This document shows, piece by piece, positions 38,782 to 64,000 of a stretch of DNA of 64,000 nt. The stretch is from Bdellovibrionales bacterium (GTDB taxonomy: Bacteria; Bdellovibrionota; Bdellovibrionia; Bdellovibrionales; UBA840): assembly GCA_045110695.1 (NCBI GenBank), contig JBGCGH010000023.1, forward strand, positions 34,238 to 98,237, in the 5' to 3' direction. The notes beneath the pieces were generated by a model. That model was not told the origin of the DNA. It made no database searches and saw only the letters and a list, made by a program, of their open reading frames with translations. Position numbers and translations under genes: made by a program. The stretch's first letter is position 1. Each line of letters opens with the position of its first letter.

Positions 38782-40554
38782 ATGTCATATGAGGTAATTG
38801 CAAGAAAATGGAGATCACAGTCCTTCGACGAACTCGTTGGTCAATCTCACATTTCGCAAACCCTTCTCAATGCCCTTAAAAAAGATCGCCTTCCTCATGC
38901 TATGCTTTTTACCGGCACTAGAGGAGTAGGTAAAACATCCAGTGCCAGGATTTTAGCTAAGGCTCTGCGTTGTCCAAACCAAGTAGATTTTAAACCATGC
39001 AACACTTGTAATGAGTGTGTTGATATCAGCAAATCTAGCAATGTAAATGTAATTGAAATTGATGGAGCATCTAATAATGGAGTAGATGCAATTAGAGAGC
39101 TAAGAGACTCTGTGGGATATATGCCCGCCTCTGGAAAGCATAAAGTATACATCATTGATGAAGTACATATGCTCTCCACCAGCGCTTTCAACGCCCTACT
39201 AAAAACTTTAGAAGAGCCTCCAAGTCATGTTATTTTTATTTTAGCTACAACAGAACCTCAAAAAATCCCTATCACTGTTCACTCTAGGTGTCAGAGATTT
39301 GATTTTAGACGTATTTCTACTAAAGAGATTCAGGCTCATCTTAAACACATCTGTGAAAAAGAAGAGATTACTTTTGATGCTGAAGCTCTATGGACCGTCG
39401 CTAGACAAGCGGATGGTTCAATGAGAGATAGCATGAGCTTACTAGATCAGGTGATTAGTTTTTCTAACGGTGAGCTGGTTGCAGACAAGGTATTTAACGT
39501 ACTCGGTCTCACCGACAGACAAATTTTGGTGGATACATTAGATGCTTTGGTAAATCGAAACGATGACAAAATCATTGAGGTTATTGAGAAACTTCACTCT
39601 AGTGGAACCGACCCTAAACAATTTGCTGAAGATCTAATAGAGGAAATACGAAACCTACTTTTTGTAAAACTAGAAACTCCTAAGTTAGAAGACATCGTTG
39701 ATGTACCAGAATCAGAAGTGGAGCTTCTTAGAACTCATGCCTCACTCTTGAGTAATGAAGATATTCATATGTTGTTTGATATGGCCCTAAAAGGGGGAAA
39801 TGACATACCCAAATCAGAGAATCCCGGCATTGTCCTTGAGATGATGCTACTGCGGATGACCGCTGCACCAAAGATTGCTCAAATTGTTGGATCACCAACG
39901 GTTCAAAAAAAAAATCTAAACTCTGAGAGCCAAAGAAATGAGACCACTAAGCAGCAAGCAACTGCGAGCGCAAGTAGTAATAATACCGAAAATAAAACTG
40001 CGCAAAAAGAAACTATTAATACAGAAACAAGAAAAATAATCCCATCTACCGAACGGGACAGTAAACCCAATATAAGACCAGACAGTAGTAATATTAAGGT
40101 AAATAATAAGCTAGAGCCAAAGGCTCCCTATCTGGAGGATCTATCTCTTCAAGAGAACTGGAATAGAGCGGTTCAATATGGAAAAAGTAAACAGCCGATG
40201 TTAATGGCTAAGCTTGAGCATTGTATTCCTTTAAATAAATCTATGGACTCCATGGAGTTTGGATTTGTAAAAACTAAGGTGTTCCTAAAAGAAACCTTGG
40301 GCGAGCGATCCTTGATGGATAAAATCCTGCATTGGTTAAACGAAACTTGGGGCACCGAATTAAGTAAAATGAGCTTTAACGGAATAGATACTCCTCCAGA
40401 GAATAGAAATTTATCCCCAAAAGAGTACGAAGCGCAGCAAGAAAACTTGGAACAAGAGAGAATTGAGCGTAGCATTGAAGCCAATCCCTTAGTTCGAGCA
40501 AGTATAGAAATTTTTAACGCTAAAATTAAAGACATTCAGGAGATGAAGAAATGA
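38782..40554 (+). CDS. dnaX: DNA polymerase III subunit tau (and probable gamma)
   Basis: MSYEVIARKWRSQSFDELVGQ..., Walker A GTRGVGKTS, IIDEVHML, SRCQRF. Start at ATG 38782; the track start at 38740 would overlap the SRP RNA 3' end. A10 run at 39905-39914 (see findings). Confidence 0.95.
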   Translation: MSYEVIARKWRSQSFDELVGQSHISQTLLNALKKDRLPHAMLFTGTRGVGKTSSARILAKALRCPNQVDFKPCNTCNECVDISKSSNVNVIEIDGASNNGVDAIRELRDSVGYMPASGKHKVYIIDEVHMLSTSAFNALLKTLEEPPSHVIFILATTEPQKIPITVHSRCQRFDFRRISTKEIQAHLKHICEKEEITFDAEALWTVARQADGSMRDSMSLLDQVISFSNGELVADKVFNVLGLTDRQILVDTLDALVNRNDDKIIEVIEKLHSSGTDPKQFAEDLIEEIRNLLFVKLETPKLEDIVDVPESEVELLRTHASLLSNEDIHMLFDMALKGGNDIPKSENPGIVLEMMLLRMTAAPKIAQIVGSPTVQKKNLNSESQRNETTKQQATASASSNNTENKTAQKETINTETRKIIPSTERDSKPNIRPDSSNIKVNNKLEPKAPYLEDLSLQENWNRAVQYGKSKQPMLMAKLEHCIPLNKSMDSMEFGFVKTKVFLKETLGERSLMDKILHWLNETWGTELSKMSFNGIDTPPENRNLSPKEYEAQQENLEQERIERSIEANPLVRASIEIFNAKIKDIQEMKK

Positions 40555-50485: not shown

Positions 50486-50983
50486 ACGAGCAGAATAAAG
50501 CCATCCCGAAACCTTGGGTCTAAAAAGTAGAAGAGCAGAAAACAAGAGCCAAAAAATAGCATAGGATACATAAAAGGCTTCCATCTTATTTATTGCTAAG
50601 GCTTCCATTTTAAAAGCAATGTAGTAACTAAATGGACCAAAAAAGCCAAACAGAACTAGCATTACATATCTAAGCTTTTTAAAGGTCGCATAGTTATAAA
50701 TAAACAAACTTGAAAAACTTAGCCAACAGGCACAAATAGCCATGGTTGCATAGCGATCTAGGTCTATGACACCTAATTGGTGCATAACCACATCAAACAT
50801 AAACCCCATCGCCGTGAGAAGTAGAACTTTCCTCCAGAAGGAACCTTGTGGCTTGTAAGTTTTTTGCACTATAAACAGAAAAAGAATCAAAGCTGCTGGT
50901 ATTAAGAAGTACCACCTCATAGAGGCTGAATAAACATAAGCAAACCAGAAGAAATTAAAAAGTATGGCGGGAATAGCGGTCAT
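50465..50983 (-). CDS. Polytopic membrane protein (DUF2878-like)
   Basis: 172 aa with about 5 TM helices. Family name is a tentative recollection. Confidence 0.45.
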   Translation of the reverse strand: MTAIPAILFNFFWFAYVYSASMRWYFLIPAALILFLFIVQKTYKPQGSFWRKVLLLTAMGFMFDVVMHQLGVIDLDRYATMAICACWLSFSSLFIYNYATFKKLRYVMLVLFGFFGPFSYYIAFKMEALAINKMEAFYVSYAIFWLLFSALLLFRPKVSGWLYSARSREGID

Positions 50984-51285
50984 ATATTAGTTTCCTTTTT
51001 GTTCCAATGAACTAGCATTGCACAGTAAGGAACACTAACTAGCGCCCCACCGGCAAAAGACAAAGCACATACAATTATTGCTCGTTTTGGTTTTGGGTCA
51101 AAGTAAAAACCAAGAATGCCTATAAGAACTAAATTAATATACAAATCGATCGTAATTGTAATAAACCAACGACTCGATTTTAAACTTTCAAAAGACACAA
51201 AAAAGTTTTCAGCAGAATAGGCCCACAGACATGATCCGATCATCAATAAAAAAAAAAAAAAAAATATAAAGTTTCTAATCGACAT
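50980..51285 (-). CDS. Small membrane (lipo)protein containing a T16 homopolymer
   Basis: ATG 51285 with AAGGA 7 nt upstream. MSIRNFIFFFFFLLMIGSC..., where the F-run is encoded by a T16 run (A16 on the + strand, 51248-51263). 3 TM segments. Confidence 0.5.
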   Translation of the reverse strand: MSIRNFIFFFFFLLMIGSCLWAYSAENFFVSFESLKSSRWFITITIDLYINLVLIGILGFYFDPKPKRAIIVCALSFAGGALVSVPYCAMLVHWNKKETNI

Positions 51286-52105
51286 CCCAAATCCTTTTTT
51301 TGGTCAACACCATTGAATAGCCGTAGTTGTAGTAGGCCGCTTCATTTATAAAGATTGGAAACACTTCTTCCTCTCCCATATATAATTCCACTTCCCCATC
51401 GAAGCCAAGCATAAGAGGCTCTCCCTTCTGAAGGGGCTTAAAGTCTTTTCCTTGCCTATCAGGGTGAACCATATTTAAAAATAAATCATCCTCTTTTTGA
51501 TAAGTAACTTTTTGATCCCAGGCATACACTTCCAGCTGCCCAGATATCTTAGAATACTTGCCATCGTTTATAGCCTCCATCAAGATACTTAAAAGCTCCT
51601 TAGTTTTTAAATAAACATTCGGATCTATTAGGTTATTGGCTACTGGACCTACTTCTACTACAATTCCATTTTTACATTTAGATGTTAAATACGCATCTCC
51701 AGCCTCACCGTAGTAAATAATCTTAAGAGATTTAACTTGCCTTTGAACGTATAGAAGTAATTTTTCTAGTACAGTATTTCTTTCCGGTAAGATACAGGTA
51801 AGCCCCATATTTGTAGTAGTACTGTGAAGATCAATTACAAAATCAAACTGGTCCAACTTGAATTCACCTAGAATACGAGCGGCCAATTTCGACTCGTGCA
51901 TCTCTGGTGTATTCTCTGATTGTAAATCGAAACTGCGATTAAGGTCTTTATCGACAAATCTCTTTCTCTCTTCAAAGGCTCTCTGATTGGCGAGCAATGT
52001 CTTGAAAGAATACTTTTTAGTTAAATCTAAAATGTCTGGATCTTGTAACAAATAAACCCCTGTCCATTCATTACCATGAGTTCCCCCAACTAAAAGATGA
52101 TTCAC
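51275..52105 (-). CDS. Succinylglutamate desuccinylase/aspartoacylase family zinc hydrolase
   Basis: N-terminal LVGGTHGNEWTG and DLHSTT motifs. Confidence 0.8.
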   Translation of the reverse strand: MNHLLVGGTHGNEWTGVYLLQDPDILDLTKKYSFKTLLANQRAFEERKRFVDKDLNRSFDLQSENTPEMHESKLAARILGEFKLDQFDFVIDLHSTTTNMGLTCILPERNTVLEKLLLYVQRQVKSLKIIYYGEAGDAYLTSKCKNGIVVEVGPVANNLIDPNVYLKTKELLSILMEAINDGKYSKISGQLEVYAWDQKVTYQKEDDLFLNMVHPDRQGKDFKPLQKGEPLMLGFDGEVELYMGEEEVFPIFINEAAYYNYGYSMVLTKKRIWDVD

Positions 52106-63655: not shown

Positions 63656-64000
63656 TTGAGCCTAATAAGCCTTCAAAATATTGGAAAAATCTTTGGAAAT
63701 AAGACCCTATTTCAGAGCCTGAATCTCAGCATTGAGGACAAACAGAAAATTGCCGTTATAGGTAAAAATGGAACCGGAAAGTCGACTCTAATGAAAATTA
63801 TGGCTGGAATCGAAGACTATAACTCGGGTGATATTACCAAAAAAAAAGGCCTCCAAGTTGAGTATGTGGCCCAGGACAGTGTGTTTCCGGAAAATAAAAG
63901 CATTTTTGAGATCATTTTTGAACACCTAGAATCAAAAGGGGTTAGCGATGAAGATATTTATATCGATGTTGGGTCCTCGATTAGTATTGGTGGATTTGAA
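63656..64000 (+). CDS. ABC-F type ATPase (Uup/EttA-like), 3'-truncated by window edge; absent from ORF track
   Basis: TTG start with AGGAAG 6 nt upstream. (M)SLISLQNIGKIFGNKTLFQSLNLSI...GKNGTGKSTLMKIMAG (Walker A). The frame is open to base 64000. Confidence 0.85.
   Translation, partial: MSLISLQNIGKIFGNKTLFQSLNLSIEDKQKIAVIGKNGTGKSTLMKIMAGIEDYNSGDITKKKGLQVEYVAQDSVFPENKSIFEIIFEHLESKGVSDEDIYIDVGSSISIGGFE

Follow-up and report, generated by a model that had tools for sequence, protein, structure and literature searches.

The DNA analysed here (the window) is a stretch of 64,000 nucleotides (nt) from a Bdellovibrionales bacterium of the GTDB group UBA840 (assembly GCA_045110695.1, contig JBGCGH010000023.1, positions 34,238 to 98,237), and it carries a dnaX gene in which a run of ten adenines (A10) lies shortly past the part that codes for the clamp-loader core. 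The 590-amino-acid (aa) product of this gene contains the three clamp-loader domains, with Pfam matches to DNA_pol3_delta2 at residues 21-178 (PF13177, E 1e-43), to the ATPase lid at residues 182-230 (PF22608, 3e-20) and to gamma/tau domain III at residues 234-364 (PF12169, 4e-27). The motif LRMTAAP, at residues 357-363, marks the end of domain III. The protein scores 469 bits against TIGR02397 dnaX_nterm (cutoff 250), and NCBIfam PRK14965 covers its residues 1-589 (E 4e-171). A full-length match to PRK05563 was also obtained (522 bits, cutoff 400), and the tau-specific C-terminal extension is present. Furthermore, a protein 100% identical to it bears the name "DNA polymerase III subunit gamma/tau" in a Bdellovibrionales metagenome-assembled genome (MAG). 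Downstream of dnaX follow ybaB, recR and the gene of an MglA-like GTPase.

The zero frame at the run reads GTT CAA AAA AAA AAT CTA, that is, V374-Q375-K376-K377-N378-L379, and the run begins 12 residues past LRMTAAP, at 64% of the open reading frame (ORF). It includes an in-phase A_AAA_AAA heptamer at 39906-39912, and the codon that follows is AAT, not AAG. A shift of the reading frame in either direction soon meets a stop codon (Table 1). An earlier note, made from the sequence of this stretch, had picked out the run as a probable site of tau/gamma recoding. Direct reading confirmed the coordinates, the codon readings and both stop positions that it gave, and the run does lie after domain III, at a measured distance of 12 residues and not of about 15 as the note had it. 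The gamma-like product of 377-381 aa that it had anticipated agrees with the products that we predict, of 378, 379 and 381 aa.

Table 1. Features of the dnaX locus, with positions counted in the window.
Feature	Position	Strand	Remarks
dnaX coding sequence (tau)	38782..40554	+	590 aa, zero frame, single ORF; ATG at 38782, stop at 40552-40554
Region coding for domains I-III (aa 1-364)	38782..39873	+	common to tau and the predicted gamma; Pfam limits
Nascent-RNA hairpin 5' of the run	39882..39903	+	9-bp stem AAUUGUUGG/CCAACGGUU, two G-U pairs, loop AUCA
A10 slippery run	39905..39914	+	codons CAA AAA AAA AAT; T10 in the template strand
Tau-only part	39915..40551	+	low-complexity linker and conserved C-terminal domain (~aa 445-590); missing from the predicted short product
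TAA stop, +1 frame	39917..39919	+	ATC TAA, 1 codon; predicted ends ..QKKI (A9, 378 aa) and ..QKKKI (A12, 379 aa)
TGA stop, -1 frame	39924..39926	+	AAA TCT AAA CTC TGA, 4 codons; predicted end ..QKKKSKL (381 aa)

Conservation of the run was assessed in a clade set of 14 sequences, composed of the window, 12 loci retrieved by exact protein look-up and one locus (L093), the only one to come from a search of metagenome contigs with a C-terminal alignment. These 14 loci belong to independent assemblies (NCBI, ENA/TARA, Logan and JGI), are 3.4-4.8 kb long and all show the order dnaX-ybaB-recR-GTPase. The nearest DnaX orthologues are 49-56% identical in aa sequence to the window protein. Twelve of the 14 sequences carry A10, one carries A11 (L085) and one A8 (L089), always 2-14 codons past the end of domain III, counted from the equivalent of residue 372. 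In a 130-nt alignment of this region, columns free of variation are limited to the run positions and to the GC of one Ala codon that belongs to the domain III motif, the flanks having diverged. None of the clade loci holds an A10 other than the one in dnaX, and all 14 keep the tau frame open. At the protein level, the nearest DnaX share (E/Q/V)KK(K/N) a few residues past domain III, in a linker that is otherwise unalignable. Further on, the C-terminal domain is kept in the clade (mean column identity 59%), with weak matches to PF12362 in seven of nine members (best E 5e-4) and to DnaX_C (PF20964) in two of nine (8e-6); comparison of this domain with solved structures gave no match. The earlier note had named conservation of the run together with its out-of-frame stops in orthologues as the test of its proposal. 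When this was looked at, 13 of the 14 sequences had A10 or A11 with near stops in both shifted frames, which supports a reading of the run as a tau/gamma recoding site.

We then compared the distances from the run to the first stop in each shifted frame with those from all codon boundaries of the same genes. In the +1 frame the stop comes after 0-28 codons, with a mean of 6.0 against a null mean of 13.5 (p 0.004). In the -1 frame it comes after 3-15 codons, with a mean of 6.9 against 9.8 (p 0.13). The later of the two stops in each gene, at a mean of 9.3 codons, is also nearer than expected by chance (p 0.0004). The +1 frame is the one that is kept short, and a -1 shift by the ribosome would not need a +1 stop.

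Taken as a whole, the sequence data lead us to regard the A10 as probably a selected recoding site, at which programmed transcriptional slippage of the Thermus type would yield gamma-like products as well as tau from a single dnaX gene. That the site is a functional tau/gamma device we consider very likely; if it is functional, the polymerase is probably the main source of the shift. Bacterial RNA polymerase slips efficiently on A/T runs of at least nine bases, and its RNA:DNA hybrid measures 9-10 bp (PMC5009743, PMC1088944). Since a tract of ten bases fills such a hybrid, we infer a Thermus-like process for the window. The hybrid would at one point lie wholly inside the A10/T10 tract, where the nascent RNA could realign without mismatches, and the outcome would be a population of mRNAs with A9, A10, A11, A12 and so forth. 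Transcripts with A10, and those with A13 and one extra Lys, would be translated into full-length tau (590 aa in the case of A10), while A11 would lead to the product of 381 aa, A12 to that of 379 aa and A9 to that of 378 aa. The short products would be gamma-like, with domains I-III kept and the tau linker and C-terminal domain lost. Exact look-up of seven predicted short products (from the window, L083 and L086) in the protein collection found none of them. One member of the protein cluster, P0124 (393 aa), was considered as a truncated product and rejected, for it is a fragment whose truncation lies at the N-terminus and whose frame continues across the run.

The closest precedent is the dnaX gene of Thermus thermophilus (Larsen et al. 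2000), in which, as far as the accounts in PMC5009743 and PMC1088944 go, an A9 with stops in both frames gives rise to mRNAs with one or more extra A's and to tau and gamma in a ratio of about 1:1. Like this gene, the dnaX of the window is a single zero-frame tau ORF with an A run in the sense strand and near stops in both shifted frames, and would need no downstream RNA stimulator. Because both shifted frames are closed, every out-of-frame transcript gives a gamma-like product in Thermus and would do so here. In contrast to the Thermus gene, the run is an A10 and not an A9, it lies directly past domain III and it belongs to an AT-rich, mesophilic genome; besides, the occurrence of slippage, its efficiency and the action of the short product as gamma are in our case predictions from sequence. 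The earlier note had likened the site to the dnaX genes of both Thermus and Escherichia coli. The first likeness fits better, and the second holds only in part, as the stimulators of the E. coli gene are absent. The site would belong to a class already known, the dnaX recoding sites of Thermus type, here in an E. coli-like position directly after domain III, and it has precedents in both organisms. We found no literature on dnaX recoding in Bdellovibrionota.

A functional site could also owe its shift to the ribosome, through -1 frameshifting or sliding on A_AAA_AAA (A_AAA_AAG in relatives), with termination at the TGA of Table 1 and a product of 381 aa. Such a site would resemble E. coli dnaX stripped of its stimulators, since in both genes the site lies about two-thirds in, the gamma (predicted in our case) lacks the C-terminus of tau, the -1 stop is close and the A-rich heptamer is in phase. 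Indeed, seven relatives have an in-phase A_AAA_AAG, which is the exact heptamer of E. coli dnaX and which alone yields about 14-16% frameshifting in vitro (bioRxiv 10.1101/2025.10.02.679949), and every clade member has its -1 stop within the 3-15 codons given above. However, ten bases are conserved where seven suffice for the ribosomal heptamer, and the stops that are significantly close are those of the +1 frame, which is also quickly closed in the window, contrary to E. coli dnaX. The A_AAA_AAA heptamer is moreover reported to be much less prone to shifting than A_AAA_AAG in E. coli (PMC5009743), and the window has AAT after the run.

The E. coli site combines its heptamer with an upstream Shine-Dalgarno (SD)-like element and a downstream stem-loop, and we found neither of them at the run. 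Across the 14 clade genes, the 40 nt 3' of the run do not exceed other stretches of the same genes in structure (p 0.82). In the window itself their folding energy is -0.7 kcal/mol (89th percentile of the gene), with a z of -1.4 for the 131-nt context. No GGAG, GAGG or AGGA occurs in the upstream 30 nt of the window, and SD-like motifs were seen in two of the 14 clade members, at other distances and with no consistent placement. A search of positions 39600-40200 against Rfam (cmscan, E<=10) returned no family, the two matches to unrelated families being at chance level (E>1). No downstream stem-loop, no SD-like element and no Rfam match were thus detected, and we conclude that a frameshift cassette of the E. 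coli type is absent. No intrinsic terminator was found at the run on the plus strand, and a search of the window for tRNA-Lys gave none, its sole tRNA being a tRNA-Ser. We hold it unlikely that the ribosome is what the site is built for. Unstimulated -1 slippage on the in-phase heptamer may nonetheless add to the 381-aa product that transcriptional slippage would generate.

On the 5' side of the run, the nascent RNA can form a hairpin (-8.4 kcal/mol, z -2.49 against dinucleotide shuffles) that ends 1 nt before the first A. The earlier note had described a hairpin of 5 bp at this place; it exists and extends to 9 bp, but it does not stand as a general feature of such sites. The upstream 30 nt of the clade genes are more structured than other stretches of the same genes (p 0.0005) and are also GC-richer, and the richer local composition largely accounts for this difference. 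Against dinucleotide shuffles the combined Z for the clade falls to -1.96, and among 15 independent A-run dnaX sites of other phyla upstream structure gave no signal (Z -0.4). On account of these two values, the hairpin was rejected as a shared stimulator. In this organism it may help slippage, and it is conceivable that in some clade members a nascent-RNA hairpin adjacent to the 5' end of the run is an extra tuning element. The analogy is with IS630 of Roseiflexus, where a nascent-RNA hairpin stimulates slippage and, as related in PMC5009743, the T5C5 motif does not slip without it (Penno et al. 2015). Both hairpins lie directly 5' of the motif. Unlike the IS630 motif, however, an A10 should slip alone, and the hairpin of the window is weak and is not conserved as a feature.

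A further explanation dispenses with recoding altogether. According to it, a short basic patch x-K-K-K/N with which the tau linker begins would be of importance to the protein, and A-rich codon usage would produce the run. A K-K pair is indeed present in 14 of 14 sequences, these AT-rich genes prefer AAA for Lys (0.77) and the rest of the linker is of low complexity. Codon choice at the run goes further than this preference, however. All Lys codons inside the runs are AAA, against 0.77 elsewhere in the same genes. The codon before the Lys pair, when it encodes Glu or Gln, always takes the A-ending synonym, against 0.69 (GAA) and 0.76 (CAA) elsewhere, and when it encodes Val it is GTA in three of three cases, against 0.30 elsewhere. 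Together these choices have a naive joint probability of about 5e-7, a figure in which the kinship of the clade members leads to an overstated independence, even if synonymous sites should be saturated at such divergence. The A10 and A11 runs moreover take two codon phases, as ten sequences read xAA AAA AAA AAy and three GTA AAA AAA AAA (the A8 of L089 being in the third phase), and they encode four peptides (QKKN, EKKK, EKKN and VKKK). With SKKN included, the peptide varies among five forms while the run length stays at ten. Selection thus appears to act on the nucleotides and not on the peptide, the constant being the length of the A tract. In addition, long A runs put a gene at risk of mutation and of faulty transcription, and selection as a rule keeps them out of genes (PMC1088944), and runs of A9-A11 are also found in unrelated phyla with unrelated linkers, as described below. 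We consequently judge an explanation through the peptide to be decidedly improbable.

That the run arose by chance as a stretch of low complexity in an AT-rich genome, or is an artefact of homopolymer assembly, is scarcely credible, for although dinucleotide shuffles of the window yield 4.3 A10/T10 matches on average and the sequence comes from a MAG, 14 independent assemblies keep both the run and the open tau frame, the run is the sole A10 of each clade locus and the invariant columns of the alignment fall on it, by which this possibility is effectively refuted.

Several points weigh against programmed transcriptional slippage at the A10. By composition, an A10 alone is unremarkable in the window, whose GC content is 38% and whose shuffles give the number of matches just mentioned, so that the case rests on the position of the run in dnaX and on its conservation in orthologues. 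That conservation has bounds. The motif is missing in many other Bdellovibrionota, including Bdellovibrio proper, and L089 has A8 only, which implies that the device is dispensable or replaceable. In a neighbour-joining tree of the best 120 matches, the window falls within a clade of ten sequences that are all carriers of the motif, and further carriers are scattered among non-carriers; the device appears, from this distribution, to have been gained or lost several times in the phylum. The stops of the -1 frame are by themselves not significantly near, and the kinship within the clade bears on the codon statistics in the manner stated above. Any A10 contains an in-phase A_AAA_AAA, so that ribosomal and polymerase slippage cannot be separated by sequence alone. 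Finally, there are AT-rich bacteria that put up with long A/T tracts and whose polymerases may be resistant to slipping (PMC1088944), and a stretch of the window's length does not suffice to show that its genome avoids such runs in genes.

We also analysed A runs in the dnaX genes of unrelated bacteria. A profile search of genome contigs with the clade alignment picked up generic DnaX motifs and hence a broad bacterial sample in place of close relatives, and it was reused as background: 80 dnaX loci of unrelated GTDB species were taken among the matches listed. In these loci, 11 runs of at least nine A or T fall in the 400-nt zone past domain III, versus eight in the other 285 kb, so that the zone is enriched 12.6-fold (p 3e-7). 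Ten of the 80 loci carry A9-A11 within about 100 codons past domain III, and they belong to Ignavibacteriota (two), Fibrobacteria, Leptospira (with two runs), Bacteroidota, Gemmata, Kapaibacterium, Burkholderiales, Methylophilaceae and a Clostridia MAG. In all ten carriers, the frames that do not continue the protein reach a stop within 10 codons. Of the eight runs elsewhere, five again belong to dnaX and precede its end by about 34-44 codons (four in Geobacter-like bacteria, one in a Thermodesulfovibrio MAG). Altogether, the 80-species sample contains no fewer than 15 dnaX genes, spread over about ten groups of phylum rank, in which an A9-A11 lies past domain III or close to the C-terminus and both shifted frames are closed. 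Judging from these sequences, long A runs downstream of the clamp-loader core of dnaX appear to be a recurrent and convergent device. It is conceivable, if rather doubtful for now, that poly-A slippage, and not the ribosomal frameshift of E. coli, is the commonest route to gamma in bacteria. In the Bdellovibrionota clade, a run length of exactly ten could reflect a tuned ratio of tau to gamma.

Individual members of the background sample differ in their arrangement. The dnaX of Leptospira biflexa (L027) has two A9 runs (2673-2681 and 2768-2776), which lie 32 codons apart past domain III and each have near stops in both shifted frames. In Gemmata (L045), with a GC content of 64%, an A9 is very unlikely by composition, and one is present at 2724-2732, 35 codons past domain III; its shifted frames close after 10 and 7 codons. 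Three loci stand out by unusually good folding of the 40 nt that follow the run (L055, run at 2669-2678, z -4.6; L033, 2764-2772, z -3.0; L072, 2601-2609, z -2.5), and some lineages may combine an A run with a downstream stimulator of ribosomal frameshifting, unlike the Bdellovibrionota clade. The A10 runs of the Geobacter-like (Desulfuromonadota) dnaX genes (L002, 1820-1829; L003, 3071-3080; L004, 3071-3080; L007, 3042-3051) are found at about codon 514-524, which leaves some 34-38 codons to the stop; their -1 frame closes after 2-3 codons and their +1 frame after 6-14. The A9 of the Thermodesulfovibrio MAG (L012, 2998-3006) is 44 codons from the stop, and there the +1 stop comes after one codon and the -1 stop only after 32. 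These runs may represent a second, C-terminal class of A-run sites, which would remove only the last part of tau.

Two other published routes to the two forms of DnaX can be set beside the one proposed here. In two-ORF dnaX genes, an A10 aligned to the Thermus site led to a proposal of transcriptional slippage on comparative grounds (Antonov et al. 2013, PMC3711429). Their zero frame meets a stop past the run, and tau depends on a slip; here, on the contrary, tau is made from the unslipped transcript and gamma would need the slip. One such reversed case is present in our background sample, in the Clostridia MAG (L072), where the zero frame stops one codon after the A9 and the -1 frame is open for 115 codons. 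In Caulobacter crescentus, ClpXP processes DnaX to tau and a shorter gamma without the C-terminus (bioRxiv 10.1101/2022.11.10.516041). This route, unlike ours, is post-translational proteolysis and involves no slippery sequence, and the window offers no sign of it.

The reason for which bacteria maintain two forms of DnaX is still under debate, and each independent lineage that has evolved production of gamma strengthens the case that the short form is selected. The clade described here amounts to a natural experiment, as the run is held at ten A's while its surroundings have diverged, and close relatives (Bdellovibrio proper) are without it. Our analysis also indicates that A-run sites inside a single ORF are recognisable by comparison; earlier surveys had set such sites aside for creating no new coding sequence. 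As to annotation, the dnaX genes of these MAGs should carry a second product, of about 380 aa. A further consequence may concern the neighbouring gene. The stop codon of dnaX and the ATG of ybaB overlap as ATGA at 40551-40554, which suggests translational coupling. Ribosomes released early, at the gamma stops, would fail to provide it, and the output of ybaB could depend on the ratio of tau to gamma.

The window contains a single other A/T run of ten bases or more, an A17 at 51248-51264 (T17 on the minus strand). It lies shortly past the stop of a minus-strand ORF of 276 aa (51275-52105) and falls within the first codons of an ORF of 101 aa (50980-51285), where, if translated from the ATG of the latter, it would encode IFFFFFFI. 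The A17 could lie between genes, could belong to a start region subject to phase variation or could point to a weak spot of the assembly. Two A9 runs, at 1863-1871 and 63839-63847, lie outside any ORF of at least 60 aa, the second of them within a minus-strand ORF of 45 aa. Apart from the A17, the run in dnaX is the only A/T run of at least nine bases in the window that is located inside a long and supported gene.

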